From Patescibacteria group bacterium (GTDB taxonomy: Bacteria; Patescibacteriota; Patescibacteriia; UBA10025; JAHIVO01): 64,000 nt of DNA. The notes under the pieces were generated by a model. It had not been told where the DNA came from. It searched no databases and saw only the letters and a list, made by a program, of their open reading frames with translations. Positions within the stretch are counted from its first letter, which is position 1. Each line of letters begins with the position of its first letter. Shown piece by piece: positions 3,385 through 44,150 of the stretch. Position numbers and translations under genes: made by a program. Location: contig JBAZKE010000006.1 in assembly GCA_041650915.1 (NCBI GenBank), positions 8,961 through 72,960 on the forward strand, written 5' to 3'.

Positions 3385-3401
3385 CGGCAATTAGTTAATT
3401 G

Positions 3402-3436: not shown

Positions 3437-3477
3437 TTTGCCGGAAGCACAAATTTAATTACTGGTTATCTATTTTT

Positions 3478-3497
3478 CACGTTACACTTTATTAGAC
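3478..3497 (+). promoter_or_regulatory. Conserved CACGTTA-N-TTTATTAG promoter-like element (copy 1)
   Basis: CACGTTACACTTTATTAGAC. Related sequences precede three other genes (25843, 32105, 46145). Confidence 0.35.
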
Positions 3498-3610
3498 CAC
3501 CATAGAATCACAACATTAATCGTCTTAATCGAATTACACGGTACCATTAGGTACTGAATAAATTTCTGGCGAAAGTCAGGAAAAATTAAACATCGTTTTA
3601 GGAGGCCAAA

Positions 3611-5634: not shown

Positions 5635-8600
5635 TTGGGCGAAATTCTTCAGGTTATTATGAAAAATTTAGACTGGACTCCTGATACCGCGGAACAAGCC
5701 GGCGAGGCCATCGGCATCGCTTGGGATACAGCGGAATTTACACCGGAAGATTTGCTTCAGGGTATGAATGTCGAGCTTGAGCACTGTTCAGACCCAGATA
5801 CCGAAGTAATTACTTGTAATTCTGAAGATACTGCTCGAATCGCTTGGGCACACCTTAAAGAATCGTCCGCATATTATCGCAATCTAGCTAAAATGGAACA
5901 AAGCTTTAAAGAAGCCTCCGCCAGAACGGCCGCCGAGCTTGAACCCGAGGACTTGGCTAAAGCGCGCGGTCTAGAAAAAACTCGTCCTGTAGTTGACCCC
6001 TATGAAATTCGTGCGCGCGAAATTCTTAAAGAGCAAGGCAACGAGCAGCCGACAAAAAAAGAACTCGATGCAGCCTACGATTTAGCCTCACGTGAAGGGC
6101 GAAAGCCCGGCGCGGCACCGGCCCCAGAAGCCGCGTCCGAGCCAGTTAAAATCAAGCGCGGAAAAAAGGTCTATAAGGCGCCCAAGCAAAAAGCTGAAGA
6201 GCCCAAGCCCGACAAGCAAGAGTTCATCGCGGCTTTCCTGGCCGATTATGACCATAGGCGCAAGTCTTTTATCATTGATAGTCTGAATGCGCTACGCGCT
6301 GATAAATCTATTTCTAAAGAGCAGCGCGTTCAAGTAGGTAAAACTATCGCGGCCATGCAGCCCGAAGCTCTGGCGGCGTTTGCTTATTCTAAAGCACTTG
6401 CTGATTTTGAGACCAAAGCAAAAACTAAGGCACAAGAATCGGCTTTTCACACCAAAGTAAAACAATACCTCAAAGCGCAGGGTATCGAAGACTATACGCA
6501 AGAGCAATGGAGCGCGGCAGTTTCTGCGATCATCGCCCAAGAGCGCAAAGAAGCCAAAGAACTAGAGAACACCAATATAGAAAAAGGCACCAAGCATCTG
6601 CAAGAGAAGAAGGAAACTGTAGACCCAGAAGACGAACAAAATGATCAACAGGTTGCGGAGTTCACGCAGCCGCTAGTCACGTCTGCGGTCAGTCAAATCA
6701 AGTCTTTTGTCAAAAATCCAAAGGCGGAAGTCTGGACACAGTATCCTGGTGCAGATAAAACCCGGTGCTTCGTTTTAGATGTGTTGGTTCCTCGCGGTGA
6801 GCGCTACGCTGCACGCGTAGGTAATTATCTCAATATACCGGCTGATGTTGTGCTCGGTGCAATAGAATCATCCGGCGCAGCGTATAAAGAATACATTACA
6901 TACATCTCAGAGTTTAATACAGAACTCACCCAGGCTTTAACTGCAGCGTTTGAGGCTGAATTACCAAAGCTAGCACCGTACATAGATTTGGGTTTAGACA
7001 AAAAAGACACAGCGGATGCCGCCGACGATAAAAAAGCTAAACCGAAGATTAAATCCGATGTCCCCACACTTGACACCAAGCTCATAGGCTGGGAGCTGGA
7101 GATATTTGATACTGTAGCGTTTGGGGAATCTATTTCTGACGCACCCGAAGGTTTGCTTTTGGTTGCTACAATCGAAGAATCGTATATCGCCCATTGGTCC
7201 GCTGTGGACAAAGCGGCAATCAAAATTCTGCATACAGACATTCCTAAAACAGTTAAAAATCCAGGTAAGTGGCCTGATTGGGCAAAAACTGACAAATGGT
7301 TCGACGTCAGCACCGAGATGGCAGAACCCAGCGAAGCCGTGGTCGTGGCACAGCTTGCGAAGTACGCTGGCGGAAATGATTCCTACAGTCTAAGCGCTAG
7401 TTCGGCGCTCAAGCTCAAGCGTGATTCTGGTTCACCAGCGTACACTAAATATTTTGCTAAAAAGTTCGAAAATTTAAAGACTAAACCAGAAAAGACCGAT
7501 ACTCCGGTCATTGCGACAGAGATTTTCCGTGATTATTTAGAATTACCCGAATCAGATCCGCTACAGTCGCTAGCCGAAGCCATCGTTATGGAAAAAATGG
7601 GAGATATAGCGGAGCATCAGACAGCCAGAATACAAGATCAAGGATATACAGATTGGATGGTCCTGGTATACGATTCAGTCAAGCAGACTGTGATTCCTGA
7701 CGCGCCCAAAGGTCTATTGCTTTTAGGTATTATTTCCAAAAAAGATAAAGAACAGCACACTCAGGCGTTGGCACGACGCAAAGCCATTATCAATAGTGCG
7801 CAGGCTACAGGGGCACAGCAGCTTGAACTTTTTGGGCCCAATGCGGGGCGCGGTGAAGGCCAAGGTGTGGCTGAGTTTACCAAAAAGGCCGAGGCTGAAC
7901 TAGGACTTTCCGAGGATGAAGCCGATCTATGGCGCCAGTATTTCATTGTATCGTTGAAGCAAACTCAGCACACTCACGTGAAACCTATGCCGCGCAAACC
8001 AAAAAAATTCAAAACTGAAACAGGCAAGCAAGTGACTATGAAGCCCGACGAATCTGAATTCGCTGAAGATATTTCACAAATTGGTAAATCGGACGTCGAA
8101 ACCTACGACCAGCGTTACAGCAGCGTGAAGACGGCGGTGGTTAAGGACTGCAAAGAAAAAGACCTGGATGATCGCCCCAAGGCCGAGCAAAAAGTTTGCC
8201 TCTACAGCGAAGAGGGCAAGCTGCTCGGCCGGCATCCCACGGAAGAATCGGCGGAAAAGCAACGCCGCAAGGTCGAGATGGAAAAGCACTCGGCCTACTT
8301 CAAAGTCAATCCTCTGGCTTTCGTTTCGGCAGACGAAATTTCTGATTACTACGAAGAGCAACATCTCCGGATGGCCTATGGGTTCTATGACGCAGACCAA
8401 GCGCAAAGGGCCCAAGCCAAAGTAACGGCAATCTGGAAAATGCGCAAAGCTCGAGTTGGCGCAGAGTTGACCTATACCAAGCAAAACGGCAACGAAGTAG
8501 AATTCATCGGTACGGTGGACAGCGCGCGAACGTACCGAGGTACGGCTGGGCTGGATCCGGTAGCCATCACTTCCATCAATCCCTTTGAAGAATACGCCCA

Positions 8601-9384
8601 AGGCAAAATTGGCAACGACACGGCTGCACTGACCGCCGCACTGCAGTCTTGGCACGGAACGCAAACTAAAGTCGCTTCGAAAGGCAAAACCATGCTTAAA
8701 GTTAAAGCTTCAGCTCTTCTTCGCATTGCGGAACTCATTGAGGTCGATGCCCCGAGTAAAGAACAGATTCGTGCCGCTGGGCTCAAGTGGCTCGCCGAGG
8801 CAGTAAAACCACGACAGCGCACTGCGGCAGATCTAACTCCTCGCGTTGAGATGATGGACGCGCTGGAAGATCTAGGTATTGTGGTGAAGAACTTCCAGGA
8901 CGAAGGCAAATTTGTCGGCATGGTTAAAGATATCGGTAATGCCTTTGCCGCACAAAAAGACGCCATGGGTCTAAAACTGTGGAACGCGCTCAAGGCGGAG
9001 CTTTCGGCGCAGCTACGCGGAATGGCTGAAGATATTGGTTCAGGTGCTTCCGAGCAAGAAGGCTTCGCTGAGGCGCTAGGTGAAGCCATTAAAACCGCAG
9101 AAGGCAAAGTTCAGGCTTTCTTAGGCAAAGCCCAAGCCCAGCCCAGCGGAGTTGCAACAGCAGAAGTCAAGACCGCACTGAACGCTCCAGTATTCGCGCC
9201 ACCGCAGGACCCCACCACAGAACTGCAGAGTAAGCTAGCATATATCCTCAATACCATCGAAGACTACATTGCGCAATATGCAGGCGATGCCGCCAAACTC
9301 ATGGAAGTAAAAGGCGCGCTGGTTCGCGCTTGTGCTTCAGCCTATATTGATTTGAATTCACCGCGCGCCGCAGCCAAGAAATAA
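5635..9384 (+). CDS. Large hypothetical protein (1249 aa), K/E-rich with internal repeats
   Basis: Uninterrupted 3.75-kb ORF. Repeated DAP[EK]GLLL[VL] segments. AT-richer 5' end. Confidence 0.7.
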   Translation: MGEILQVIMKNLDWTPDTAEQAGEAIGIAWDTAEFTPEDLLQGMNVELEHCSDPDTEVITCNSEDTARIAWAHLKESSAYYRNLAKMEQSFKEASARTAAELEPEDLAKARGLEKTRPVVDPYEIRAREILKEQGNEQPTKKELDAAYDLASREGRKPGAAPAPEAASEPVKIKRGKKVYKAPKQKAEEPKPDKQEFIAAFLADYDHRRKSFIIDSLNALRADKSISKEQRVQVGKTIAAMQPEALAAFAYSKALADFETKAKTKAQESAFHTKVKQYLKAQGIEDYTQEQWSAAVSAIIAQERKEAKELENTNIEKGTKHLQEKKETVDPEDEQNDQQVAEFTQPLVTSAVSQIKSFVKNPKAEVWTQYPGADKTRCFVLDVLVPRGERYAARVGNYLNIPADVVLGAIESSGAAYKEYITYISEFNTELTQALTAAFEAELPKLAPYIDLGLDKKDTADAADDKKAKPKIKSDVPTLDTKLIGWELEIFDTVAFGESISDAPEGLLLVATIEESYIAHWSAVDKAAIKILHTDIPKTVKNPGKWPDWAKTDKWFDVSTEMAEPSEAVVVAQLAKYAGGNDSYSLSASSALKLKRDSGSPAYTKYFAKKFENLKTKPEKTDTPVIATEIFRDYLELPESDPLQSLAEAIVMEKMGDIAEHQTARIQDQGYTDWMVLVYDSVKQTVIPDAPKGLLLLGIISKKDKEQHTQALARRKAIINSAQATGAQQLELFGPNAGRGEGQGVAEFTKKAEAELGLSEDEADLWRQYFIVSLKQTQHTHVKPMPRKPKKFKTETGKQVTMKPDESEFAEDISQIGKSDVETYDQRYSSVKTAVVKDCKEKDLDDRPKAEQKVCLYSEEGKLLGRHPTEESAEKQRRKVEMEKHSAYFKVNPLAFVSADEISDYYEEQHLRMAYGFYDADQAQRAQAKVTAIWKMRKARVGAELTYTKQNGNEVEFIGTVDSARTYRGTAGLDPVAITSINPFEEYAQGKIGNDTAALTAALQSWHGTQTKVASKGKTMLKVKASALLRIAELIEVDAPSKEQIRAAGLKWLAEAVKPRQRTAADLTPRVEMMDALEDLGIVVKNFQDEGKFVGMVKDIGNAFAAQKDAMGLKLWNALKAELSAQLRGMAEDIGSGASEQEGFAEALGEAIKTAEGKVQAFLGKAQAQPSGVATAEVKTALNAPVFAPPQDPTTELQSKLAYILNTIEDYIAQYAGDAAKLMEVKGALVRACASAYIDLNSPRAAAKK

Positions 9385-12856: not shown

Positions 12857-14059
12857 ATGAAAATTACACCGGAAATCATGGCGGAGTGCAAGCATTACCC
12901 AGATGGTACTATAGGTGTACGAAATCGTAGCGGCAGAATGATAAAGTATGAATGCTGCGCGTCCTGTGCTGGGTGCGGCGAACCATTTTTATCTGAACAT
13001 TTCTACAAAAACGGACAGCGCGTTTTTAACACGTATTGCTCTGTTTCTTGTAGAAGTAAAAATATGGTTCTTTCCGACGAAACACACCACAAAATGGTGG
13101 TGTCGCATCTCGGTAAACCTGTTTCACCAGAAACGCGTAGGAAGTTAAGCGCAGCGTCTCGTGGTAGACCAATGCCCCTGCACGTGTCGGCTGTATTGCA
13201 CTCACCAGAGGCCAAACTAAAAGCCAGAGCAGGGCGAGACGCCCACGTGGCACTGCATGGTGGAAATTTAAAACCAGCACAGCATGCTGCTAAACACAAC
13301 CACTACCGACACTATATAAATAAAGCGGCAAACCGCGGTTTGATTTTTGAACTGACTAAAGATGAATTCTTAGACATAACATCTAAGCCTTGTCATTACT
13401 GCGGTGTAGCATCCAGCATCACAGTTAAAAATCATGCTTGCTGCACCACAGATGGTTTTTATGTCTGCAATGGCGTAGATCGCGTGGATTCAAGCAAAGG
13501 ATATACGCTGGATAACGTGGTTCCGTGCTGCACCCAGTGTAACATAGCAAAGTTAAATAAAAATATCGCTGAGTTTTTAATTTGGGTACTGAAAACGGAT
13601 TTGTTTTTACGTAATAAACCCACTAGTTTAACTTATTTCGGAGACATCATTGAGGCACAGCAGAGCGTTATGCGCGTTGTATTTGGTGAGCATAAGCGTA
13701 GGCGTAAGCACGGCAGTAAAGATTATATAGTCAGCACGCTGAGCATAATTGATTTTGCACGCCTAATAAGAACGCAATGCTTCTACTGCGGTGGAGGGTT
13801 ATCTAACGCGCGTGCACGCACTTACGGGCGTAACAGAAAACGTCCGGCTGATGGTGTAGTGCTGGAATACAATGGTTTGGACAGAATAGACCCCGATGGT
13901 GGCTATACCCTGGAAAATGTGGTTCCGTGTTGTGCAACGTGCAATAGAGCTAAATTAGATTACTCACAGGACGAATTCTATACCTGGGTAACACGCGTAG
14001 CCAACCACATTAGAAATACGCCAGAACTGTTTGATTTGGTCTCGTCCCATCTTTGTTAG
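12857..14059 (+). CDS. HNH homing endonuclease (tandem HNH_3-type motifs)
   Basis: Two copies of NGxDRxDxxxGYTLxNVVPCCxxCNxAKL. N-terminal Cys-rich segment. Markedly AT-rich compared with neighbours. Confidence 0.75.
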   Translation: MKITPEIMAECKHYPDGTIGVRNRSGRMIKYECCASCAGCGEPFLSEHFYKNGQRVFNTYCSVSCRSKNMVLSDETHHKMVVSHLGKPVSPETRRKLSAASRGRPMPLHVSAVLHSPEAKLKARAGRDAHVALHGGNLKPAQHAAKHNHYRHYINKAANRGLIFELTKDEFLDITSKPCHYCGVASSITVKNHACCTTDGFYVCNGVDRVDSSKGYTLDNVVPCCTQCNIAKLNKNIAEFLIWVLKTDLFLRNKPTSLTYFGDIIEAQQSVMRVVFGEHKRRRKHGSKDYIVSTLSIIDFARLIRTQCFYCGGGLSNARARTYGRNRKRPADGVVLEYNGLDRIDPDGGYTLENVVPCCATCNRAKLDYSQDEFYTWVTRVANHIRNTPELFDLVSSHLC

Positions 14060-23457: not shown

Positions 23458-24460
23458 ATGGTGGGGACAGGACCAAGATCATCACTACACGCAGCCCGCA
23501 GATCCCGAGACTGAAATCCCGGTGGCAGATCTGCTGCGGGAATTCGACGAGATGATCGAGATCGCGTGCCGAGACGGCACCTGGAATGTTGATCCATATC
23601 TCTTCGGCATGGCCAATGGCATGATTTTCATGCGGTCAATAGTCAGCGGCGAAGAACCTCAGTATTTGGAGGCGCCGGCCGAGTGGTCGGGCGAGTCCAG
23701 TGGGGTAGAGGCAGAATCGGATAAGCGTTCACTTGCGCGGGGTGAAACTACACGTTACGTTACCCGTGACTATCTTCGCCAATATGTAGAGTCTACCGGT
23801 GTCGATTTGGACGACATAAAGCGTCATTATGGCCTCGGACAACATTCGGCCAGTGCCCAGTACCGACGGGGTTTTGTCGACGGGCAGGATTTCGGGCATG
23901 CTATTTTAGACGACGCGGCCCAACTTGAGCATGGTACCACAGCACTACAACGTGATGTCGACCGATTAGGCTGGGACGGGGCCGTTGAGCACCAGCAAGA
24001 TTTAGGCGACGCGGCCCAGCAACGTCTGGACCCCAATGCCATCAGCAAAACCATGTGGCAAATGGGCGTGCGGGATGCCAAACTGCTCGGCCCAGGGCTT
24101 ATAACAGTCGAAGAGGCGAAAGCTAGGGCGGCCAGAAGTGTCGCCAGCACTAAACAAGAAATATTGGCAACCCTGACCTCCAAGTTTAATTTCGGCGAAC
24201 CCAACGAATTTGACACACAAATCAGCACCGAAGCGGCCTACGCGCAGGAGCAGGACGCCATGGTGGCGTGGACAGCAGTCCGGCAGTACATCGATTCCGT
24301 GCTGCGGCAGCTCCTTCCCGTCACCACGACCGAAACAGATTTCGGCATGGCCCAAACCATCCTTGGTCTCATTGAGGTGGCGTCACATGTCGGTCGTGTG
24401 CGTTGCCGATGCTCAGATCCTTGGCGACTGCATGTCGGCATCACGACGCTCGCCAAATAG
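23426..24460 (+). CDS. Hypothetical protein (344 aa)
   Basis: Long ORF. Its own ATG lacks an RBS, whereas the out-of-frame 23403 ATG has a good one. Confidence 0.5.
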   Translation: MVMFTGKPTPEWWGQDQDHHYTQPADPETEIPVADLLREFDEMIEIACRDGTWNVDPYLFGMANGMIFMRSIVSGEEPQYLEAPAEWSGESSGVEAESDKRSLARGETTRYVTRDYLRQYVESTGVDLDDIKRHYGLGQHSASAQYRRGFVDGQDFGHAILDDAAQLEHGTTALQRDVDRLGWDGAVEHQQDLGDAAQQRLDPNAISKTMWQMGVRDAKLLGPGLITVEEAKARAARSVASTKQEILATLTSKFNFGEPNEFDTQISTEAAYAQEQDAMVAWTAVRQYIDSVLRQLLPVTTTETDFGMAQTILGLIEVASHVGRVRCRCSDPWRLHVGITTLAK

Positions 24461-24717
24461 TCTGCCACACACCTGCTTTGCCATGTCGTACTCCTCAGAT
24501 CCAAACGATCGACTGAGAAATATTTTAGCAATAATTTTATTGCTTTACCTAGTTTATTGGTTCTGGAGTTACTTCCCGAAGCACCAATCACGTTAATTTT
24601 GGGTATACGACGAGTACACGAAACAATTCGGGCAAGCAGATCCCACGGCTCCGCTGGTCAAATACCTTCAGACTCTCAAATCGTTCGAGAAGTAACAACT
24701 GCAGCACACTTTTCCGC

Positions 24718-24752
24718 TTGACATTCCCACCGTTCCCTGCTATGTTGCTAGT
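24718..24752 (+). promoter_or_regulatory. Sigma70-like promoter P1 (TTGACA-17-TATGTT) driving a leaderless ATG
   Basis: -35 at 24718-24723 and -10 at 24741-24746. The ATG at 24753 lies 7 nt after the -10. Upstream TTTTCCGC extension. Confidence 0.55.
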
Positions 24753-25226
24753 ATGCCAGCCAAATCCTACTACGCATTTGCCTTTGGCAAAGCCGATTTC
24801 GAAAACAATATTTTAGTTCCTCTGAGTGCTGCGTTCCGTCATTTCTGCATGGCAGAATGGTGTAAAGCGCTCGGCACTACACACAAGTTTTTCGATCACT
24901 GGTCGGCAGAAGTCGACAATCTCACCGACACTTACCTGGAAGCTGTCGTGCAGCCAACGACGCTGCAGCCGGCTGGCAGAATTAAAGTTTATCTCCGCGT
25001 AGTTGCCCGGCTGCGCGATCAAGACGAGCACTTGCAGAACCTGGCGTTCCAGCACTATTGCAAGTCATTTCCAGAACAGCATCCGAAAACTACACGGCTG
25101 CCCAAAGTCGTGATCGACGCATTCTGGCACGACATCCATCTCCGCACCAAAGCTGCACTCGTCGACACCCGGCAGACAGGGCGCATTTGGCTATTCGAGT
25201 CTGTTTTCAGCCCGATTTCCGCTTGA
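24753..25226 (+). CDS. Hypothetical early protein, tandem paralog 1 (157 aa)
   Basis: Leaderless start. About 45% identical to the 25258..25737 product (both contain VPLxAAFRHxCxxxWCxxxGTT). Confidence 0.6.
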   Translation: MPAKSYYAFAFGKADFENNILVPLSAAFRHFCMAEWCKALGTTHKFFDHWSAEVDNLTDTYLEAVVQPTTLQPAGRIKVYLRVVARLRDQDEHLQNLAFQHYCKSFPEQHPKTTRLPKVVIDAFWHDIHLRTKAALVDTRQTGRIWLFESVFSPISA

Positions 25227-25257
25227 CATTCCCACCGTTCTCTGCTACTCTGGCTAT
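25223..25257 (+). promoter_or_regulatory. Sigma70-like promoter P2 (TTGACA-17-TACTCT) driving a leaderless ATG
   Basis: Near-identical copy of P1 (TTTCCGCTTGACATTCCCACCGTTCyCTGCTA). ATG at 25258. Confidence 0.55.
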
Positions 25258-25737
25258 ATGACTACTGTATGCCGTATTGGCTTCGCATTCTCAAAAACTG
25301 AACTCGAGAACCAGATGTTGGTCCCGCTGCGCGCCGCATTCCGCCACTATTGTTTGGTCGCGTGGTGTCGGCTACAGGGCACCACATATCAGTACTACGA
25401 CCACTGGCAGGCGGAGGTTGTGAATCTTACTGCAGCGTTTTTCGATGCGCTGACGACGCCTTCAACACTTAAACCTGCCGGTAGAATTAGAGCATACGAG
25501 CACGTCGTCGCAGGAATCCGAGATAATACGATTGTGTTCGAGGAAGCAGCACGCGACCACTATTTGGACGCCTTTCCCGAGCAAGAAGACAAGATTAAGA
25601 ACAAGCGTTTGGACAAAGCTACATTGGATAAATTCTGGATTTTATTGAACGCGCGTGCGAAAAAGAACCTCGTCGCGAACAAACTCGTGGGCAAACGCTG
25701 GCAGTTCGAATCAGTTTTTGGTCCTATCGACGCTTAG
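25258..25737 (+). CDS. Hypothetical early protein, tandem paralog 2 (159 aa)
   Basis: Leaderless start. Paralog of the 24753..25226 gene. Confidence 0.6.
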   Translation: MTTVCRIGFAFSKTELENQMLVPLRAAFRHYCLVAWCRLQGTTYQYYDHWQAEVVNLTAAFFDALTTPSTLKPAGRIRAYEHVVAGIRDNTIVFEEAARDHYLDAFPEQEDKIKNKRLDKATLDKFWILLNARAKKNLVANKLVGKRWQFESVFGPIDA

Positions 25738-25842
25738 TTTCTTGCTAGCCGATTTTTCCTACCCTACAACCACGCCACTTTCCCACGTCTCCTGCATAAA
25801 AATGGCTCCGGCTGCCCTTTTCCCGTGACACAGCAGTAAAAG

Positions 25843-25860
25843 CACGTTATACTTTAGTAA
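25843..25860 (+). promoter_or_regulatory. Conserved CACGTTA...TTTAGTA promoter-like element (copy 2)
   Basis: CACGTTATACTTTAGTAA followed by an 8-bp palindrome GTAACCAC/GTGGTTAC, upstream of the 25879 gene. Confidence 0.35.
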
Positions 25861-25878
25861 CCACCGCGGTGATTCCCC

Positions 25879-27468
25879 GTGGTTACTACCAAAGGACGCC
25901 TCATGCTGTGGAATAAAGCCAAGTTTGATTTCGCCGTCACGACGCTTAAATCCCATACTTCCATTGAAAGCGTCTGCGCCATTCTTTCCAAGAGGTGGAG
26001 AGAAACCATCTCACCAAACGCACTGCGCCGCGCGTTTCGCCGCGAAAAGCTCAAGCAGCCCCAGAGCTACTTGAAAAACGAAAAGTCCTTGGGACCTGAA
26101 TGCCAGGGCAAGGTTGCGAAAAAGAATTTTGTTGTCTGGGATGCCGGCGTAATCAAAACTACAATCGAAGTGTTGAAGCGCCACGGCACATTGGCACCGG
26201 CTTGTGCGGAATTAGCCGAATTGTTCAAGCTACCGGTGAACAAATACTCCATGGCGCGGGGCTTCCAGCGCCTGGGGCTAAAGCCTCCAGCGAGTTTCTT
26301 AGATCCGCACAAAAACATTGAAGCTCGGCACGAACAAGCCCGCCGAGCCGGAAATGCGTTCGCCCGAAACGTCGAGGCGAAGAAACTGGGGACCAGAGCG
26401 GGGATCGGGAAGATTGAGATGCCGGAGTGGACCCTTGGTGAAGACGAAGAAGGCCGAGCGGTTAAGCCGCCAAAAATTGGCTTAAACCTAGACGAAGGGC
26501 AACGCCGATTATTCCTAAGCACAGTACAACGAGGGCCTAGAACGATCAATGAACTAGCAGACCAGTTTGACGTTTCGCCCAAAACCATTAGAAGTATTTT
26601 TGAATCACTACAAGGTCAAGGGTATACACTAGCCCTAGAGCACGATCAGGTTATAAGTTTTAACTCTAACGCAGAAAACAGCATAGAAAACGCGAAAGAA
26701 ATTCCAGACTACGCCGGAGAGGACGGAGTTTTCTGTTTCGGCGCTGTGGCTGATACACATTTTGGCTCCAAATATTGTGACGAGCAAGCGTTTAAAGATT
26801 ACGTTGATTACGCCTACTCACTAGGTGTTAGAACTATACTGCACGCAGGCGACTTGATGACTGGTTTGCTTAACCACCACGGTATGTCATACGAGGTAAA
26901 ATTATTAGGTTTTGACGAGCAGGTAGAGCATACCCTCAACTCTCTACCGCAGAGAGAAAGTCTATCTTATTGGTATATTATCGGGAACCACGAGCAAAAT
27001 TCCTGGGCAAAATCAATAGGTTACTCGCCTGGACGCGCCTTAGAGCGCCGCGCCCGCGAGCTAGGACGCACCGATATACACTATATAGGTGATATACAAG
27101 GCAGAGTGGTATTCGGACAAGAAGAACAAGCTATTAAGGTCGAGCTGGCGCACCCCAAAGTCAGCGGAAGCACATATGCAATTTCATATCCGGTACAAAA
27201 ATGGGTAGAACGCATGCCTGGAGGGGCAAAGCCGCATATACTTTTGTCAGGCCATCTTCACAACTACTCTATCATAAATACACGAAATGTAGTTTGTATC
27301 CAGCCAGGGTGCTTTGAGCATTCCACTCCATACACTAAAGAAATGGGCTTGCACCCCGCCGTTGGAGGAGTTATTGTTTGGGCTAAGCGAGACGGCGTAA
27401 ACTTATGGCTTCGTAGTGAGTGGGTAGCAACCCGCACCAAACCTGTAGACTGGACCCAGATCGAATGA
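25879..27468 (+). CDS. Calcineurin-like metallophosphoesterase domain protein (529 aa) with an N-terminal half of unknown function
   Basis: C-terminal motifs GAVADTHFG (D-x-H), HAGDLM (GD), IIGNHEQ (GNHE) and SGHLHN. RBS AAAGGACG. Confidence 0.7.
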   Translation: MVTTKGRLMLWNKAKFDFAVTTLKSHTSIESVCAILSKRWRETISPNALRRAFRREKLKQPQSYLKNEKSLGPECQGKVAKKNFVVWDAGVIKTTIEVLKRHGTLAPACAELAELFKLPVNKYSMARGFQRLGLKPPASFLDPHKNIEARHEQARRAGNAFARNVEAKKLGTRAGIGKIEMPEWTLGEDEEGRAVKPPKIGLNLDEGQRRLFLSTVQRGPRTINELADQFDVSPKTIRSIFESLQGQGYTLALEHDQVISFNSNAENSIENAKEIPDYAGEDGVFCFGAVADTHFGSKYCDEQAFKDYVDYAYSLGVRTILHAGDLMTGLLNHHGMSYEVKLLGFDEQVEHTLNSLPQRESLSYWYIIGNHEQNSWAKSIGYSPGRALERRARELGRTDIHYIGDIQGRVVFGQEEQAIKVELAHPKVSGSTYAISYPVQKWVERMPGGAKPHILLSGHLHNYSIINTRNVVCIQPGCFEHSTPYTKEMGLHPAVGGVIVWAKRDGVNLWLRSEWVATRTKPVDWTQIE

Positions 27469-27482
27469 CTCGCGGGTGACTT

Positions 27483-28241
27483 ATGTTGCTTTCGGGCGTG
27501 TACAAGATTCAAAATACAGTTAATGGCAAACAGTACATAGGTAGTTCTGTGAATATACGAGAACGCTGGCAAGACCACGAAAGAAACCTGCGTGCCGGTA
27601 CGCACGCTAACGCCAGGCTGCAACACGCCTGGAATAAATATGGGGCAGACGCGTTTATATTTTCTATCATAGAGCTAGTCTCTCCAACCAAAGATGCTTT
27701 AATTGCACGCGAGCAAGCGTGGATAGATTTGCACAATACTGCTCATCGGGATGTTGGGTACAATATAAGTCCGACGGCAGGATCTTCTCTGGGCACCAAA
27801 TTTTCTGCGGAAACTTGTGCGCGCATGAGTAAAGCACAAAAGGGCAAAGTGCTCACGGAAGAGCACAAAAGAAAGATAGGCGCAGCGGCAAAAGGCAGAA
27901 AAGCGTCGGACGAAACTAAAATAAAGATTGGAAACGGTAGTCGAGGCAGAAAGCACACAGAGGAATGTAAAGCTAGAATCGGAGCTGCGTCCGCTGCTTG
28001 GACACGTGGGCCTGTATCGGACGAGACGCGCGCCAAACAAAGTGTAACGCGAAGAGCGAAACGATTGGGACATGGCGCCTCTAATGGCAGGGCAAAATTA
28101 ACAGAAGAACAAGTGATTGAGATCCGCAGACTTTACGCCACACGCGAATACACCAACGTTCAAATAGCGCAGCTTTTTGGCGTGTGCAAATCCACCATAG
28201 GCAGGATAGTACAGGGTAAACACTGGATTTTTGTAGCTTAA
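27483..28241 (+). CDS. GIY-YIG homing endonuclease with NUMOD3-type repeats
   Basis: GVYKIQNTVNGKQYIGSS...R...H. Repeated HKxKIG/ETKxKIG modules. AT-rich island. Confidence 0.85.
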   Translation: MLLSGVYKIQNTVNGKQYIGSSVNIRERWQDHERNLRAGTHANARLQHAWNKYGADAFIFSIIELVSPTKDALIAREQAWIDLHNTAHRDVGYNISPTAGSSLGTKFSAETCARMSKAQKGKVLTEEHKRKIGAAAKGRKASDETKIKIGNGSRGRKHTEECKARIGAASAAWTRGPVSDETRAKQSVTRRAKRLGHGASNGRAKLTEEQVIEIRRLYATREYTNVQIAQLFGVCKSTIGRIVQGKHWIFVA

Positions 28242-32188: not shown

Positions 32189-35100
32189 ATGGCAATCGGC
32201 GATATCCGGCTTACCAATTCGCGTTATGTGCGTCCCGGCGCTTACATTGGATTTGTGCCGCAGCCGTCCCCAGTTTCCCCGACGGGAAACCCACGCTATC
32301 CCTGCATCGTGGGCCGTGGGTCGCGCCTCGCACGGGTTAACGCCGAGCAGCACGTGCGTGCTCGCGTGTACGGTGAGCAGCTCACATTCACGTCTACGGC
32401 GCCGTACATCGCGTACCTGGACAATAACGCCAATCCCGACAAGGGTTTGACGCAGGTTTACGACTCCTCGGGGCGTCCTGTGCCTTCCGACAAGTGGGCG
32501 TTCCTGGTGAATCTCTCGGCCTCGGGTTACTACAACCGCGTGCAGATTGATTCCACGACGTTCAACAAAAACGTCACGTATTACGTGGAATACCAGTCGG
32601 TAGACCGCGGCGTGCTCGACGAGATGATGTTCGACGGTGTTCGCGAGATGCTGCTCGTCGGCGATGCCGAGGGGCAGAATAAGTACGTAGAGTTCACGGA
32701 CTATCGTGTGGTCACGTCGCTCGTGGGCTCCACCGTGGACCCGGACGCCTGCACGGCGGACACAGATAATACGTTCTACGCTAGCACCATCGTGCCGGCT
32801 GCACTAGTACCCGCTCCTGCTCCTGGCGCGGGTTCTGTCGCGCTAAACGCGGCCACCAATTACATTGGTGGGTATAACCGCAAATATGTGCTAGAGTGTG
32901 TGGCCGTCAACGGTGGTGTTTCAGCAGACTTTAGTCTAACTGTAACCAACTACTCCGGCGGTAACGCGCAGACGCCAAACGTGCCGTACGTCCCGGCAGC
33001 TACTACTTCTATTTTCCGGCGTATTTTCGCAGACCCGGCCACAGCGTTCTCGTTGTCCAACCCCGCGAGTGTTGGTGTGCTGTCTGGTTATCTGACCACC
33101 AACCCGCTTCCCAATTTCTTTGGGTCCGACGGAATCGTACTGGACATCGACGCGGCATTTATTGGCGGTGACGTAGGCATTACTTGGACTTGGATGGCGT
33201 ATGGACCGGGCAAAGTTGAATTTGCTTCGGCACATGACAATACTAACCAATACTCGACTGTTCTAGACCCGGTGGAGCTTGGTGATATTGACCCTGCACT
33301 AGCGGCCACCGCACAAACGTCGGGGGGTAAAATCACTGTTCATGCCGACACCGATTTTTCTGATACTTTGGACCGTAGCTATTTCCTGCACTGCAGCGCA
33401 TCCGGCGGTGCGGTGCCTAATCGTACGGCCACCATCACTTGGGCAGGGTACAAGGAACTTCCGTACACCACCGGCTCCATCGGTCTCGTAGAGGGTACTC
33501 CGGCTTCGTACCAGCGGGTGCTGCTGGAAAACGGAATCTATCTGACGTTTGCATTCGGAACGTCACACAACCTGGTGGACACTACCAACGTGCTAGCTTC
33601 GCCGGCCGCGTCTACACTTTCTAGTGCTATCACGCTGGCCAATGAAATCCGTACTGAATACGGCGAGCACGACAATAACACCGGTGGTGCTTGGCATGTC
33701 GCGGGCTCTGGAGCGCACCAAATCGTGGCTGCGGCTTCAGCAGACCTCGCGACTCTGCGGACACTTGCGCTGGATATCCAGACCAAGTACTCGGCGCACC
33801 TCGCTGACACAACTGAGCACGTCGTCGTTGATGCCATCTGGACTCTCGATACTGATCTGACCATCACGGCAGCGTCGGACCTGGCTGCGCTGGTCAATTT
33901 CCTGAACGATGTGCGTACCAAGTATACTCGGCACGGCGTAGCCAACGGATTTGACCTGGCAGACACCTGGCGCGTTGATGCCAAGGCAGCGCGGCGTGAG
34001 TTTACGGGTAAAGACGACCGTACCGTTACCCTGACGTTCAGCGCTCCTGTGGCCGCGACGTCCGTGACCGCAACGTACACGTCGTCCACTCTCGAGGGCG
34101 GTTGGGCCACCGAAACCATTTCGGATTACAGCGACCCCTGGTTTGATCTCCCGGACAACATCCGGCTCATGGTCCGAAACCTTCAGGGTTTCACTTCGAA
34201 CCCTGGCCCACCGCTGATTCCTAACACGCACGAGCGCTATGCGGCCAATGACGTCTTCACGTTCGCGACGCTCAACCACGATGAGATTGACTGGTCACTG
34301 GTAAATCGTGCGTCCGAGACCACGGATTCCTCAGATATTCGACAGGATACTCTCGGGACCATTACCGGTACTCCGCTGTATTTCTACCTCGTACTGCAGG
34401 AGACCCCAGAAACCGTGCTCAGGGTGAAGGACGCCGCTACCCTGCTGCCCATTTCTTACACCTGGATTTCTGATACTCCGTACATCGCATTTGCCTCCGA
34501 TCCTACAGTCGATGTCATCGTGGATTACGAGTACCGCGGCAACGAGCCGGACCCCGGTAATGCTTACTACATTACGGCGAACCGTATCCGTATCGACTCG
34601 GGCTCTGAGAATGAGTACGAGATCCCGCGGCGCTTCCTGAATCATGATGCTTCTCGTCTGGGTCTGTACCCCGCGGAGACCAATAACCATCTCTGGCTCG
34701 GCAGCGAGACCATGTGGGATGCCCGTCCGTTCGGGATTTACTGTGTGCAGGTCAAGAGCGCAGCTGGCGACGATACCTTCACGACCACGGACTATCGACG
34801 GGGTATCGATGCGACCGAGACCTCCAATGCCATCACGGACGTAATTCCGCTGTCTCACTTCGCGGTTATTCCGTATGCCAAAACCTCGATCGAGAATATG
34901 AACAACCCCTTCGAGGCGAAAGAGCGCCTCCTGTGGGTCGGTGCGCAGGTTGGAACTCAGGTGGGTGACGAATCGACAGCCAATACCCTGGTGTATTACG
35001 CGCGTCGCACTCTTCAGTGTAGCCCAAGCTCTCCCGGCAAGGGCAACATCATTCTGATTGGTAACAACGAAGCTACCCGGACCTACGCCCTGGAAGACGG

Positions 35101-35719
35101 TTCAGCGACTACCGTGACGCTCGACGGTTCGTACATCGCGGCGTACACCGCGGCTTTGGTAGCGTCGTTCCTGAACCCCAGCGACACCATCGGACGCAAA
35201 TCGGTGTCTTCATTCGACACCATCACAACGTTCAACGAGAAGGAATTGGTCCTTCTGGGTCAGGCTTCCATCACGTCGCTGGATTCTATCGGTACTGGTA
35301 TTTATCAGTACGTGGAGTCTGTGACCGTCGATACCACGGAACTCGCGCTGAACGAGATTTCGGCTCGTACTCAGGCACACTACGTCGTGAAGTACGTGCG
35401 GCAGAAGATGGACGAGACCCTGACGTATCTCGTTCCTCCTTCTCCTCTGGCCGGTGTTGCGATCATCACGAACCAGCTGGTGCTCTGCCTCAGCGGGCTC
35501 GTAGCGAGCGGCGTGATTGCGCCGTACGGCAGCGACACGAATCCTCCGACGATCCGGCAGATTAATCCGGACCAGGATGTGTACGTGTTCGCGGATGAGA
35601 TCGAGAAGACGAAGTATCACTTCTGGTATTACTTTAATGCCAGGTACCCGATCAAGCGCCTCTTCGGTCTCTACAGTGTTGATACCAAGTTCTGGCAGAC
35701 CCAGTCTGCTGGTCAGTAA
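32189..35719 (+). CDS. Giant structural-like protein (1176 aa) with internal A-x-x-I-R-T-x-Y-x-x-H repeats
   Basis: Strong RBS TAAGGAG. Three IRTEY/IQTKY/VRTKY repeat units. A terminator follows. Confidence 0.7.
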   Translation: MAIGDIRLTNSRYVRPGAYIGFVPQPSPVSPTGNPRYPCIVGRGSRLARVNAEQHVRARVYGEQLTFTSTAPYIAYLDNNANPDKGLTQVYDSSGRPVPSDKWAFLVNLSASGYYNRVQIDSTTFNKNVTYYVEYQSVDRGVLDEMMFDGVREMLLVGDAEGQNKYVEFTDYRVVTSLVGSTVDPDACTADTDNTFYASTIVPAALVPAPAPGAGSVALNAATNYIGGYNRKYVLECVAVNGGVSADFSLTVTNYSGGNAQTPNVPYVPAATTSIFRRIFADPATAFSLSNPASVGVLSGYLTTNPLPNFFGSDGIVLDIDAAFIGGDVGITWTWMAYGPGKVEFASAHDNTNQYSTVLDPVELGDIDPALAATAQTSGGKITVHADTDFSDTLDRSYFLHCSASGGAVPNRTATITWAGYKELPYTTGSIGLVEGTPASYQRVLLENGIYLTFAFGTSHNLVDTTNVLASPAASTLSSAITLANEIRTEYGEHDNNTGGAWHVAGSGAHQIVAAASADLATLRTLALDIQTKYSAHLADTTEHVVVDAIWTLDTDLTITAASDLAALVNFLNDVRTKYTRHGVANGFDLADTWRVDAKAARREFTGKDDRTVTLTFSAPVAATSVTATYTSSTLEGGWATETISDYSDPWFDLPDNIRLMVRNLQGFTSNPGPPLIPNTHERYAANDVFTFATLNHDEIDWSLVNRASETTDSSDIRQDTLGTITGTPLYFYLVLQETPETVLRVKDAATLLPISYTWISDTPYIAFASDPTVDVIVDYEYRGNEPDPGNAYYITANRIRIDSGSENEYEIPRRFLNHDASRLGLYPAETNNHLWLGSETMWDARPFGIYCVQVKSAAGDDTFTTTDYRRGIDATETSNAITDVIPLSHFAVIPYAKTSIENMNNPFEAKERLLWVGAQVGTQVGDESTANTLVYYARRTLQCSPSSPGKGNIILIGNNEATRTYALEDGSATTVTLDGSYIAAYTAALVASFLNPSDTIGRKSVSSFDTITTFNEKELVLLGQASITSLDSIGTGIYQYVESVTVDTTELALNEISARTQAHYVVKYVRQKMDETLTYLVPPSPLAGVAIITNQLVLCLSGLVASGVIAPYGSDTNPPTIRQINPDQDVYVFADEIEKTKYHFWYYFNARYPIKRLFGLYSVDTKFWQTQSAGQ

Positions 35720-40315: not shown

Positions 40316-43018
40316 ATGACGGTATTGGGCGGCACTCCTCCAGGCGGAACTGGCAGCGGTAAAGGCGGAAACCCGCCTGCAACCCCGTCTAACATCAATC
40401 TTGCTAGCAGCACGGCGTCGATTAATGCCGAAACCGAAGCCTTGCTGCCCAATACCAAAGCACTAGATCAAAACGAGGGTGCACGTGAACGCTTAGGGCG
40501 ACTACAGAAACAAAAGATACCCGAAACGTTCCTGGAATATTTAAAACGCGAAACAGAAGAACTTCAAAAAGCCACCGTGGCCATGGGGCAGTATCGTCAA
40601 TATGTCGGTCAAAGCTTTGAAGCGGTCAAAGGCTTCATGACCGAAATGCAGAACATGAATTCGTTGACTGCAATTTACACGAGAACCTTGAACCAGCTCG
40701 AGCACAGCACACAAACCTATACGTCGTCCATGCAGGCCAATACGGACAACATGGGGCAGGCAACAGAACAAGCCGATAGATTCTTTGAGGGTACCAGGGC
40801 AGCAGCAGCAGAAGCAGAAAATCTAGCTGCTACGTATAAAATGTCCTCGGAGGAAATCAACGCAGCGAGTCGCACGGCGCAGAAAATGTTCGCAACCCAA
40901 CTCGGGGCCATGGACGACGTGGGCCAGGGCATGAAAGACCTGCAGAAGAATTCAATAGTACTGGGTCGCTATCTTGGCGTTGATCAAAAAGAAGTCATGG
41001 AATCTTGGCGCGAACGTATGGAAGCGTCGAACATGACTTTGGAAGACGCGCAGCAAGAAACCGCGATGCTCACGAAGGTCACGGACCAGTACACCAAGGA
41101 ATTGACCTCGCTGAGCGGCGAGATGCTCAAGACGGCTAAAATCGGCAAAAAAGAGATGTTCGAGGCGACCAAGGCCATCAACAATGAGTTTAAAATCGGG
41201 GTGCCGAATGTCGTCGCGTATACTAACGCCATGGCCAAAATGGCCGTGCAGGCAGCTAAATTCGGTGGAACAAAAAATGAGCAAAAAGATGCCATGGAAG
41301 GCGTGCTTCGACTAGGCAAGTCGCTCACAACGGTGAAGGGCGAATTCGGGCTCATGGGTATGCTGGCGTCTGAAAAACTATACGCCCAGTTTAAGACGGC
41401 ACCAGAAACTTTGTCCAAAGGTCTACGTGAGCGCTTCAGTGCACGCGCCAGCATGATGGAGGGGGCACCCGACATCATGAAACGCCAGTACGCGATGGAA
41501 ACTGCTGGAGGGAGTAAAGAATTTACGCGCTTGGCTTTCGCTGAGTTAGCTGCAAAAGGTAGCGGAAATGTAGATCAATTAGCTGCACAAATACAAGAAG
41601 TTGCTGGTGGTTCGGCCATAACAGCGCGTATGCTCGCCAGTGCAACTTTGTCTAAGGATGAAAAGTCTTTCGACAAAGCATTCAGCGAGCTAGAAGAATC
41701 TAACAAAACTGAAGCACAAAAACAGCTCGATAAAGTGGAAGAGACCGTTAAAAACGGAGCGAAAACCAATACACTGCTGGGTAATGTCGTAAGTGAACTA
41801 CAAAAAATTCAAAAATACATGATGTATATGGCCGTAGGAAGCCCCATATTGTCTGCACTTGCCGGACCATTGGCTGGTAAGCTGCTCGGGGGTGTACTAG
41901 GTTTAGGCACTAAAGTCCTTGCAGGCGGCGCAGTGACCAGCGCAACTTCAACGACAGCAGCCGGAACCATTGTAACGGGCGGCAGTACTGCTGCGGCTAC
42001 GGGTGCCGGCGCGCTCGCAGCGATCAAGGCGGCTGCCGCGGCTGCGGCGGTCCCTGCTGCGCTGGCCGCAGGTGCTGCAGCTGTGGGCTATGTTGGGTAT
42101 AAAGCGTTCAAGGCTCACGAAGGCGATAAGGAAGACGAAGCGTCGGGCAGAAGAGCGCGTGGCGGGGCTAAATTCTCGAAATGGTTGACAGGGCAGGATT
42201 CCGTAGATCTAAACAATGTCGTTATGAATATGTCGTGGGAGGAATTAGCCAACAGGAAAAAAATGATCGTTGAGCTTAAAAAGGACGTAACTAGGCTAAA
42301 AAGTCTGGGCGACAAGATGACGGAAGTAGACAAAAAAGAGCTAGAACTACGTGAGGAAAAGCTCGCTAAAATACAGAAATCTATCAAAGCCATTACCGAC
42401 GCCGAGGCGAAAGAAAAAGCGTTCACCGACCAAGAGCTTAATGCACGCCATGAAGCCACTGTGGCAGAAACCGTGAAGCGCGGTTTTGCCAATCTGGACG
42501 TTAGAGGCGGCACTCAAGGTATGGTGGCATCTTTCCTTTCTGGTCAAGGCCAAGATGTCATGCGCGGCGACTTTGCAGGTAATATCGCTGCGGCACTCGA
42601 GGGAAGCGAAGGCAAAGCGCTCAAGGAAAAGCTCGGTGAGGTTGGATTTAAAGAGTTTACAACGGCGTTAAACAAAGAAACTATGATTAAACAGATGGGT
42701 ATAGCGACATACGCCGAAGAGGCAAGAGTGCGTCGAGGCAGTAATACGCAAATAGCAGAAGAATGGGGCAAACGCGGGCGTGGTGCGGCGTCCACCATCA
42801 TAGGGTTCACAGACGAAGAGCGTAAAGCCGTAAACAAGGGAACCAAATTGAGCATTTCGGCTGCCGCGGGAGATGACGGCAGCATTGCAATTCCCACAGT
42901 CGACGCCAACGGCACCATGACGATAGCTATGCCGTCGCAGTTCTTGAGAATAAACGGTAATGCGATGTCGACACAAATGTCAGATCTGCAGAACACCAAC
43001 AGCAAGCCCGGTCTGTAA
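40316..43018 (+). CDS. Putative tail tape-measure protein (900 aa)
   Basis: Long alpha-helical, coiled-coil-rich protein. A central G/A-rich hydrophobic segment AAGTIVTGGSTAAATGAGALAAIKAAAAAAA. RBS AGGTGAAG. Confidence 0.6.
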   Translation: MTVLGGTPPGGTGSGKGGNPPATPSNINLASSTASINAETEALLPNTKALDQNEGARERLGRLQKQKIPETFLEYLKRETEELQKATVAMGQYRQYVGQSFEAVKGFMTEMQNMNSLTAIYTRTLNQLEHSTQTYTSSMQANTDNMGQATEQADRFFEGTRAAAAEAENLAATYKMSSEEINAASRTAQKMFATQLGAMDDVGQGMKDLQKNSIVLGRYLGVDQKEVMESWRERMEASNMTLEDAQQETAMLTKVTDQYTKELTSLSGEMLKTAKIGKKEMFEATKAINNEFKIGVPNVVAYTNAMAKMAVQAAKFGGTKNEQKDAMEGVLRLGKSLTTVKGEFGLMGMLASEKLYAQFKTAPETLSKGLRERFSARASMMEGAPDIMKRQYAMETAGGSKEFTRLAFAELAAKGSGNVDQLAAQIQEVAGGSAITARMLASATLSKDEKSFDKAFSELEESNKTEAQKQLDKVEETVKNGAKTNTLLGNVVSELQKIQKYMMYMAVGSPILSALAGPLAGKLLGGVLGLGTKVLAGGAVTSATSTTAAGTIVTGGSTAAATGAGALAAIKAAAAAAAVPAALAAGAAAVGYVGYKAFKAHEGDKEDEASGRRARGGAKFSKWLTGQDSVDLNNVVMNMSWEELANRKKMIVELKKDVTRLKSLGDKMTEVDKKELELREEKLAKIQKSIKAITDAEAKEKAFTDQELNARHEATVAETVKRGFANLDVRGGTQGMVASFLSGQGQDVMRGDFAGNIAAALEGSEGKALKEKLGEVGFKEFTTALNKETMIKQMGIATYAEEARVRRGSNTQIAEEWGKRGRGAASTIIGFTDEERKAVNKGTKLSISAAAGDDGSIAIPTVDANGTMTIAMPSQFLRINGNAMSTQMSDLQNTNSKPGL

Positions 43019-43041: not shown

Positions 43042-43269
43042 ATGTCACAAAAACTTCGTAAGTGCATTCAACTCGGTAAAGTGGTGGTTCGTAATCGGAC
43101 TTCCGGCGAAGTCATTGTGTATTACCCACTGCCAGACGGCTCGCCAGCGACTGCCACCATTTCCCCCGGTGGAAGTATGGAACTAGCGCCCAAGTTCACC
43201 ACGCCGGCCATGTTGATGAAATCCAACCTGGAAGAGCTGGCCCGCAAAGGCCACGTGACTTTCATATAA
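43042..43269 (+). CDS. Hypothetical small protein (75 aa)
   Basis: RBS AAAGGA. Confidence 0.45.
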   Translation: MSQKLRKCIQLGKVVVRNRTSGEVIVYYPLPDGSPATATISPGGSMELAPKFTTPAMLMKSNLEELARKGHVTFI

Positions 43270-44150
43270 TGCAATGTCACATCCATGACAATGTTCCCGC
43301 CAGTGCAGATTTATTAGTCATTCACCACATTAAACCGCAAGCATTCGGCGGGCAAGACATACCTGAAAACCGTGTGATGCTGTGCGCATCATGTCACGAC
43401 GTTCTGCATAAAGCAGAACATAAATTATCCAAAGGAAAGACCGGAGAAGCACTAGATATTATCGATCGCTTTTTACCGAATCAGACTGCCAGGCAACAGC
43501 GTCTCCGTGCACTGATGAATTCTGTGGCCTCGGCGCGTAAGGCTTGGAAGACCAAGTCGAATGTTGTTCCGGAGGCTCAGGGTAAAGTTGACGACACTGT
43601 AATCGTACAGCTAAATCTTCCGATTTGGTTACACCATAGGCTAAAAACAACCGCGCAAGATCAACAGGTTGGGTTGTACAAGCTCTGCCTCCGGGTGCTG
43701 GAGCAATATGTCGTCAAGCAAGACATGCCAACCTTGGACCCGGCTATACCCGCGGCTCCGGCACCAGAAGTAAAGTTCATCGCACCGAAGCCAAATAAAA
43801 TAATCCAGATCTGGAATGTTTTGGATAAAGCCGACGCCATGGAACTCGAAACACGAATGTTGTCCGCGGGATCGAAAGAGCGCTATTGCGAGATCATGCA
43901 AAAGGCACTCAAGCTATCCCCGTTGCCCCGCCACTTAGAAGATAAAGATTTTAGTCTGGACGACGCGTTCGGGCTGCTGACATGTGTGTTCGACAAACTT
44001 AAAAAAGCGCAAATGCGCGGAGTCGACGAACTATACTGCGGTGTACTTTTGCTGGCGCTCAAGGGTTACCCCGTTACTTTACAAATCCAGGCAGAAGCTC
44101 AGCACTATAAAACAACAAAATGGTTATTGCATTTATTTCCTGCTGCGTAA
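43269..44150 (+). CDS. HNH nuclease domain protein (293 aa)
   Basis: N-terminal HHIKPQAFGGQDIPENRVMLCASCHDVLH (HNH motif). Confidence 0.6.
   Translation: MQCHIHDNVPASADLLVIHHIKPQAFGGQDIPENRVMLCASCHDVLHKAEHKLSKGKTGEALDIIDRFLPNQTARQQRLRALMNSVASARKAWKTKSNVVPEAQGKVDDTVIVQLNLPIWLHHRLKTTAQDQQVGLYKLCLRVLEQYVVKQDMPTLDPAIPAAPAPEVKFIAPKPNKIIQIWNVLDKADAMELETRMLSAGSKERYCEIMQKALKLSPLPRHLEDKDFSLDDAFGLLTCVFDKLKKAQMRGVDELYCGVLLLALKGYPVTLQIQAEAQHYKTTKWLLHLFPAA

Follow-up and report, generated by a model that had tools for sequence, protein, structure and literature searches.

Tandem diverged paralogs with near-identical promoter cassettes and predicted leaderless starts in a metagenomic phage genome

The DNA analyzed here, referred to as the window, is a stretch of ~64 kb within a 78,120-bp metagenomic contig (ENA ERZ27247363 k141_863847; also assembled from SRR8542065) and is judged from its gene content to be phage genome. 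The locus under study holds two adjacent paralogous genes, paralog 1 (p1) and paralog 2 (p2), each preceded by a predicted promoter embedded in a near-identical cassette. Structural genes of the phage extend to 24460 and are followed by a non-coding gap of 292 nucleotides (nt) at 24461–24752 and then by the two paralogs.

The two genes and their promoter cassettes

The features of the locus, in order along the forward strand, are the following.

24711–24742, forward strand: promoter cassette 1, 32 nt, made up of TTTCCGC, the −35 hexamer TTGACA (24718–24723), a spacer ending in TGc and the first 2 nt of the −10 hexamer
24741–24746, forward strand: −10 hexamer TATGTT of promoter 1, with TGn (extended −10) just upstream and the 6 nt GCTAGT downstream; predicted +1 at A24753
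24753–25226, forward strand: p1, 157 amino acids (aa), ATG start, no Shine–Dalgarno (SD) sequence, predicted orphan all-alpha protein
25216–25247, forward strand: promoter cassette 2, 32 nt, with the −35 hexamer TTGACA at 25223–25228; its first 11 nt overlap the 3′ end of p1
25246–25251, forward strand: −10 hexamer TACTCT of promoter 2, with TGn upstream and the 6 nt GGCTAT downstream; predicted +1 at A25258; weaker than promoter 1
25258–25737, forward strand: p2, 159 aa, ATG start, no SD, predicted orphan all-alpha protein

The two proteins are 48% identical over 152 residues (BLASTP, E = 6e-54). An earlier note on this DNA had described paralogs of 157–159 aa with ~45% identity, and both open reading frames (ORFs) were found where it had placed them. 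The GC content of the pair is 0.50–0.52, compared with 0.52 for the genome.

The repeated string TTTCCGCTTGACATTCCCACCGTTCYCTGCTA is 32 nt long and not 35 nt as had been claimed, while the near-identity of the cassettes before the two genes was borne out: the copies, with the full form TTTCCGCTTGACATTCCCACCGTTC(C/T)CTGCTA, agree at 31 of 32 positions. They are spaced 505 bp apart, and their identity ends after the second base of the −10 hexamer. Where cassette 2 overlaps p1, it encodes the last codons of that gene (..I-S-A-stop), and the TGA stop codon (25224–25226) lies inside the −35 hexamer of promoter 2. The cassette occurs nowhere else in the window, in which no match would be expected by chance even at 3 mismatches, and it is without a match in IMG/VR or GTDB genomes.

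Both promoters consist of TTGACA, a 17-nt spacer and a −10 hexamer of the form TAnnnT preceded by TGn, with exactly 6 nt between the −10 and the ATG. They have the features taken here to define a σ70-type promoter, namely a TTGACA-like −35, a spacer of 16–18 nt and a −10 TAnnnT. The suggestion that the promoters are of host type is in keeping with these sequences (TTGACA-17-TATGTT and TTGACA-17-TACTCT, both with TGn), which appear σ70-like, and the distance of 6–7 nt from the −10 to the ATG given in the earlier note proved to be 6 nt in both genes. In a scan of the window, strong intergenic σ70-like promoters were found only from 24.7 kb on, past the structural block. An intergenic promoter of comparable quality precedes about 8 of the 57 window genes, all of them at or after 24.7 kb.

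The 6 nt between the −10 and the ATG leave no room for an SD. The calculated energy of the anti-SD duplex is +1.0 kcal/mol for p1 and −1.5 kcal/mol for p2, compared with a gene median of −5.8 kcal/mol, and the two genes rank as the 2nd and 7th weakest in SD complementarity among the 57. The phage normally uses SD sequences: a duplex of −5 kcal/mol or lower was found for 60% of the 57 phage genes and for 18% of random positions.

Start codons other than AUG work poorly on leaderless mRNA. The start codon is ATG in p1, in p2 and in two homologs on other phage-like contigs (L008 and L010), and none of the four has another in-frame start farther upstream. All homologs begin 5–8 residues before a conserved AFAF motif, and therefore the start is not mis-called. 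By the geometry of the promoters, the predicted +1 in both p1 and p2 is the A of the ATG, with a T at −1. A pyrimidine at −1, an A at +1 and a −10 ending 6 nt before the ATG are common to p1, p2 and the L008 gene. Transcripts of both paralogs are thus predicted to begin at the A of the ATG, that is, as leaderless mRNAs. This prediction, already made in the earlier note, is upheld in silico by the geometry, the missing SD, the ATG starts and the same −10-to-ATG spacing in L008.

Relatives, gene age and the protein family

The phage fragment L008 carries one copy of the family, 52–57% identical to the window paralogs, followed by the same helix-turn-helix (HTH)–metallophosphoesterase gene as in the window. 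Upstream of this copy lies TTGACA-16-TGg-TACAAT-6 nt-ATG, with no SD. The hexamers and the 6-nt spacing are kept, and the spacer sequence is unrelated to the window cassette. Strong intrinsic terminators stand on both sides, one ending directly before the −35 and one downstream of the gene (z = −2.0 and −3.7). Since these terminators flank the promoter–gene unit, read-through can hardly supply the L008 mRNA, which on this evidence would hardly come from anywhere but its own promoter.

A repeat of ~27–40 nt, CTTGACnnCTGTCTGACrCrCCTTACC, was also seen in L008 at 108–147 and 697–735, right after the stop codons of two consecutive genes (alignment score 34 compared with 14.6 ± 2.1 for shuffled sequences). 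A strong intrinsic terminator comes after each copy, and the two copies bracket the promoter and family gene in the manner of the ends of an inserted cassette.

Among the other relatives, the distant member L010 has TGt-TACAAT-8 nt-ATG and no SD. In L002, L004, L012 and L018 the family gene has a promoter of its own, TTGAC(A/C/G)-17-TAnnnT, with a short SD-containing leader (GGAGG) between promoter and start codon. A private σ70-like promoter was found in 7 of 8 family loci, compared with the roughly 8 of 57 window genes. The family thus appears consistently self-promoted, the leader having apparently been lost altogether in one clade. As the relatives keep the architecture, the regulatory reading (a host-type promoter and a leaderless start) is strengthened and can be called well supported in silico. 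Two adjacent 143-aa genes in L018–L020 were considered as another case of tandem paralogy, but the second encodes an unrelated zinc-ribbon-like protein. Similar-sized neighbors in L002 and L004 were likewise unrelated.

A codon-aware comparison of p1 and p2 gave identities of 0.63, 0.68 and 0.29 at the first, second and third codon positions, the random expectation for the third being 0.26. The nonsynonymous divergence (dN) is 0.48 and the synonymous divergence (dS) is incomputable, the synonymous sites being saturated. With the third position near random and no computable dS, the duplication would be ancient on a neutral clock, and the conservation of the first two positions points to purifying selection on the proteins. 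The gene pair therefore looks old and constrained. In a neighbor-joining tree with outgroups (200 bootstraps), p2 grouped with L008 in 153 replicates and p1 with L008 in 40, while p1 and p2 were sisters in only 1; each window copy is closer to the single L008 copy than to the other. Two histories would fit: a duplication older than the divergence from the L008 phage, with later loss of a copy in the latter, or the arrival of one copy by recombination from a relative. The description of the genes as locally duplicated and fast-diverging does not agree with these results.

No third copy or relic was found: when six-frame translations of the flanks and the entire window were searched with a family hidden Markov model (HMM), only the two genes were returned. 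A 13-bit match to the ORF at 5635 was taken as noise.

Upstream of the conserved metallophosphoesterase gene, the slot is filled by two family genes in the window and by one in L008; in L016 and L017 an unrelated gene of 249 aa occupies it. L016 and L017 are uncultivated viral genomes (UViGs) from IMG/VR of 177 kb and 132 kb with an HTH–metallophosphoesterase homolog 56% identical to that of the window. Their slot gene lies at 3025–3774 and is followed by TTGACT-16-TAGATT and a terminator hairpin. Conserved flanks were sought between the window and L008; the flanks are not significantly similar except in the promoter region of the downstream gene.

In exhaustive profile searches (1.8 billion representative proteins) and word-indexed searches (5.8 billion proteins), only nine distinct members of the family came up, the two window paralogs and seven others, all from metagenomic phage-like contigs. 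Pfam and PHROGs gave no match to the family, nor did a profile search of PDB sequences. A match of p2 to DruF in PADLOC (13 bits) was treated as noise. AlphaFold2 gave confident all-alpha models for both proteins (pLDDT 79, pTM 0.77 and pLDDT 85, pTM 0.80). The better of these is that of p2, for which all five models reached a pLDDT of at least 82; long helices span residues 13–40, 47–65, 73–89, 91–105 and 120–140, and short ones 107–113 and 150–154. Foldseek searches with both models against PDB, and against BFVD, returned nothing better than E = 0.19 or TM = 0.42.

Residues M1, A10, H30, W50, E53, H101, F106 and W125 are invariant in all nine sequences, and H49 is present in eight. A His/Glu/His metal site formed by H30, E53 and H101, with H49 in addition, is conceivable; Pfam gave no hemerythrin, DinB or ferritin match for the family. 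Neighborhood was tried as a guide to function and gave no lead, the neighboring genes differing in every lineage. The products thus appear to be accessory all-alpha proteins of ~18 kDa belonging to a tiny orphan family. A role in anti-defense or host takeover is no more than possible: no sequence or fold similarity to a characterized protein of either kind was found in Pfam, PHROGs, PADLOC, PDB, Foldseek or BFVD searches.

Cassette identity and the competing explanations

Outside the hexamers and the TG, 21 of 22 cassette positions are identical, for which p is ~4e-12 if the positions were unconstrained. L008 does not share the cassette, its promoter having only the hexamers in common with it. 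Set against the saturated neutral DNA nearby, and with L008 sharing only the hexamers, the identity would be recent or actively maintained, and specific to this lineage. The cassettes thus seem younger than the genes, either homogenized by recombination or held by a regulator. Homogenization by recombination or gene conversion between the copies is the most likely cause, given the copy-and-paste look of the repeats: the 7 nt upstream of the −35 are identical although they are coding in copy 2 and non-coding in copy 1. A direct repeat of 32 bp at 505-bp spacing could also serve as a substrate for deletion or amplification of the unit, an idea that matches the 2, 1 or 0 family copies in the slot of the window, L008 and L016/L017.

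The explanation preferred here, which is judged rather more probable than not, is that the locus consists of two autonomous leaderless units driven by the host RNA polymerase, an old gene pair whose cassettes have been homogenized. Each cassette would act as a σ70-type promoter with an extended −10, from which transcription would start on the A of the start codon. The mRNA of lambda cI is naturally leaderless, and 5′-terminal AUGs bind 70S ribosomes (PMC4965119); the predicted transcripts would be translated by this route and not through an SD. In such a gene the promoter would double as the signal for the start of translation, and a tandem copy would be expressible only if it kept its own promoter. 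That a leaderless gene needs its promoter for the start of translation would explain why each paralog has one. Without an SD, p2 would be poorly served by read-through from promoter 1, so each copy would have to keep its promoter. The cassettes would then have been homogenized by recombination or gene conversion between the copies, and the proteins would probably be made early.

Several points weigh against this explanation. The case for homogenization comes from two copies only, and the identity could be explained just as well by a phage-specific regulator that binds across the spacer. In promoter 2 the −10 hexamer, TACTCT, agrees with TATAAT in just 3 of its 6 bases, and that promoter rules of the E. 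coli type apply to this phage is an assumption. Terminator scan and RNA folding gave no terminator in the interval between the two genes or downstream of p2. Transcription from promoter 1 would therefore be expected to continue through p2, and coupling or re-initiation could then also bring about the translation of p2. In addition, the family gene of L009 has no promoter of its own, so that the family can function without one, and the predicted 5′ ends are not unusually unstructured. Their folds were indistinguishable from those of shuffled sequences, and an unstructured 5′ end was accordingly dropped as support.

The cassette could instead be mainly an operator, in which a phage or host regulator spans the −35, the spacer and the upstream 7 nt and switches both genes together, for example shutting them off after the early phase. 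The identity would then be kept by selection, and leaderless transcription would be compatible with this arrangement. Such a role would account for an identity that covers the spacer and the 7 nt upstream, which are not normally read by RNA polymerase, yet stops inside the −10; the cassette contains three TTCC(G/C) direct repeats, and the adjoining gene encodes an HTH protein. Nevertheless, the cassette has no dyad symmetry, L008 combines the same downstream HTH gene with a wholly different spacer, and no further promoter with this sequence was found, either in the window or among public collections; no regulator was identified. A predominantly operator role is regarded as doubtful, though a serious contender. 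It is less probable still that the promoters are real and the genes not strictly leaderless, with transcripts starting elsewhere, by read-through from the structural operon or a few nucleotides off the ATG, and with translation by SD-independent internal initiation or by coupling of p2 to p1. Only a weak AU hairpin lies upstream of cassette 1, nothing terminates transcription between the genes, the −10 of promoter 2 is weak, and ~40% of the phage genes are presumably translated in spite of having no good SD. The exact 6-nt spacing recurs, however, in three promoters, one of them independent in sequence, a strong terminator stands directly before the L008 promoter, and both paralogs lie at the extreme low end of SD complementarity.

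The earlier note had seen in the locus a hallmark of anti-defense or host takeover, and recently duplicated early anti-defense or host-takeover genes, diverging fast under positive selection, would be expected to look like this in part: small ORFans under host-type promoters, placed where the non-structural region begins, in a variable slot whose copy number differs among relatives. The age of the duplication, with its saturated synonymous sites, speaks against such an arms race, as do the codon-position pattern of purifying selection, the failure of the copies to group as sisters, the eight residues invariant across nine sequences and the lack of similarity to a known anti-defense protein or fold. 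Accessory genes of whatever function would be just as likely to occupy such a slot and to be ORFans, and an arms-race origin is held to be unlikely. Resemblance to promoters as a chance product of the duplication, with no regulatory meaning, is scarcely credible. Consensus scans do yield many false positives (15 sites compared with 9.5 expected in 12 kb), but exact TTGACA, optimal spacing and TGn occur at both sites, the identity is far above that of the surrounding DNA, and the same architecture is found, in unrelated sequences, in 7 of 8 family loci.

A more far-reaching idea is the following. A promoter fused to a leaderless ORF might form a minimal mobile expression cassette, independent of the local ribosome-binding context and working wherever recombination drops it. 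The repeated promoter would be the recombination site by which the unit is duplicated, deleted or exchanged between co-infecting phages, and the cargo would be an unseen helical-bundle fold with a metal site (invariant His30, (His49,) Glu53 and His101) that acts early as an effector on a host or defense target. This idea is put forward as a speculation with a slim chance of being right in full.

If the predicted start sites of the two autonomous leaderless units are true, the locus would be a clean natural case of a promoter and a translation start forming a single element. A duplicated gene would have to carry its promoter, and the promoter copies would evolve in concert while the proteins drift apart. 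It would also be relevant to the way in which phages assemble and reshuffle their early accessory genes, and to annotation, as gene callers based on ribosome-binding sites (RBSs) and promoter-blind pipelines treat such genes poorly. The family of nine orphan sequences, with its confident and unmatched all-alpha model, offers a candidate early effector. Since leaderless phage genes, self-promoted accessory genes and promoter-mediated shuffling have all been described before, the advance would be incremental.

Genome setting and comparison with known systems

The window is called phage because it encodes a major head protein (phrog_2522), virion proteins, several homing endonucleases, a DNA ligase and ThyX, with nearly every gene on one strand. 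There was no DNA match of the window to any cultured phage, and none for the two-gene locus by DNA or protein. The capsid protein is ~30% identical to capsids of Pseudomonas, Erwinia and Burkholderia jumbo phages, a likeness that does not identify the host. No sign of lysogeny was seen within the window. The two paralogs lie at the start of the non-structural half of this uncultivated phage's genome. The contig was deposited in a metagenome-assembled genome labeled 'Patescibacteria group bacterium' (records WC505_06850 and WC505_06855), and a distant family member is filed under 'Dehalococcoidales bacterium'. Both labels are probably binning artifacts, unfit for inferring a host, because both contigs are phage.

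Two further features flank the pair.

24527–24544, forward strand: weak AU-rich hairpin AGCAAUAAUUUUAUUGCU followed by UUUACC, seen by RNA folding and missed by the terminator scan (low confidence)
25825–25853, forward strand: next σ70-like promoter, GTGACA-17-TATACT, serving a 521-aa HTH and metallophosphoesterase gene with its ATG at 25903

The hairpin lies in the gap at 24461–24752 and is possibly, with low confidence, a weak terminator closing the structural block. No convincing terminator was found around either window unit, and no hairpin in or beside the window cassettes. The 521-aa gene has a normal leader with an AAGGA SD, and no terminator separates p2 from its promoter. A 34-nt hairpin, UAGUAACCACCGCGGUGAUUCCCCGUGGUUACUA, at 25855–25888, right after this promoter, has a perfect outer stem of 10 bp (z = −2.8) and, lying in the 5′ leader of the gene, could be an operator or leader structure. 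A search of 24300–26000 with Rfam gave nothing relevant, the one small-RNA match being sub-threshold and inside p1.

The load of homing-type endonucleases elsewhere in the window is unusually high. They lie at 12857–14059 (HNH/endonuclease VII-like, within the structural block), 27483–28241 (GIY-YIG-NUMOD3), 43269–44150 (HNH) and 58984–60906 (RRXRR-HNH), the last being 60% identical to its counterpart in the otherwise distant L002 phage. Three huge ORFs, at 32189–35719 (1176 aa), 40316–43018 (900 aa) and 5635–9384 (1249 aa), gave no PHROGs match and no Pfam match except an N-terminal DUF5661 in the 1249-aa ORF. The 1176-aa and 900-aa ORFs had no significant match to PDB sequences. The replication and transcription enzymes of the phage thus seem unrecognizable by sequence.

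Tandem duplication seems common in this genome. A second tandem pair, at 2581–3384 and 3611–4405, encodes virion structural proteins (phrog_16710) with DNA stretches ~76% identical. Three tandem paralogs at 60418–60906, 60915–61283 and 61294–61611 share the N-terminal start MKIRTGFVSNSSSSSF, and the first of them is in frame with the C-terminus of the RRXRR-HNH endonuclease ORF and apparently fused to it. A 46-nt element at 1091–1136, 1301–1346, 46191–46236 and 49241–49286, with copies 65–78% identical, encodes (T)PKFIRVAGKLYR. This peptide forms the N-terminus of three proteins (starts at 1086, 46183 and 49236) and recurs near the C-terminus of the 90-aa protein at 1086–1358. A looser version, Y..VYRNAVYR, stands at the start of the ORF at 22644, and the element looks like a shared N-terminal tag.

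Among known systems, precedents for leaderless genes are lambda cI transcribed from PRM and tetR of Tn1721 (PMC4965119). The likeness to the window genes lies in a σ70-type promoter, a transcript from the A of the AUG, no SD and an expected 70S route. Unlike in these precedents, the start site in the window is predicted from geometry and there are two tandem units. The window promoters, with their consensus −35, look constitutive or early and not like activator-dependent maintenance promoters, and the products are no repressors as far as visible, with no HTH and no family match.

Promoter-early stem-loops (PeSLs) are mobile regulatory cassettes of T4-type phages (Arbiol et al. 2010, PMC2839356; PMC4122927), in which recombination between repeated σ70 promoter cassettes shuffles ORFans (PMC2839356). 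Shared with them are near-identical σ70-like early-promoter cassettes directly before ORFans in a variable region, the stop codon of the upstream gene inside the cassette, and repeats long enough for deletion, duplication or exchange of the enclosed gene. L008 comes nearer still, with a terminator stem-loop abutting its promoter directly upstream of the −35. On the other hand, there are two copies in 64 kb and not ~50, recombination is deduced with no product observed, the window cassette has no stem-loop, AT-rich upstream region or SD at its 3′ end, and the phage is unrelated to T4. The window cassette was therefore not identified as a PeSL, in view of its missing stem-loop and SD and its two copies.

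Gene 0.3 of phage T7 (Ocr) is an immediate-early gene read by the host polymerase, with a leader and an RBS. The window genes differ from it in having no leader or RBS by prediction and no similarity in sequence or fold. They resemble it as small acidic or helical accessory proteins with strong host-type promoters at the head of a non-structural series.

Morons, described by Hendrix and colleagues, are autonomous promoter–gene–terminator units between conserved phage genes. The window units differ from them in having no terminators of their own, and their GC content equals that of the genome, so that they do not look recently foreign. They share with morons a promoter of their own, conserved neighbors and a presence or copy number that varies among related phages, and L008 shows the full terminator–promoter–gene–terminator form.

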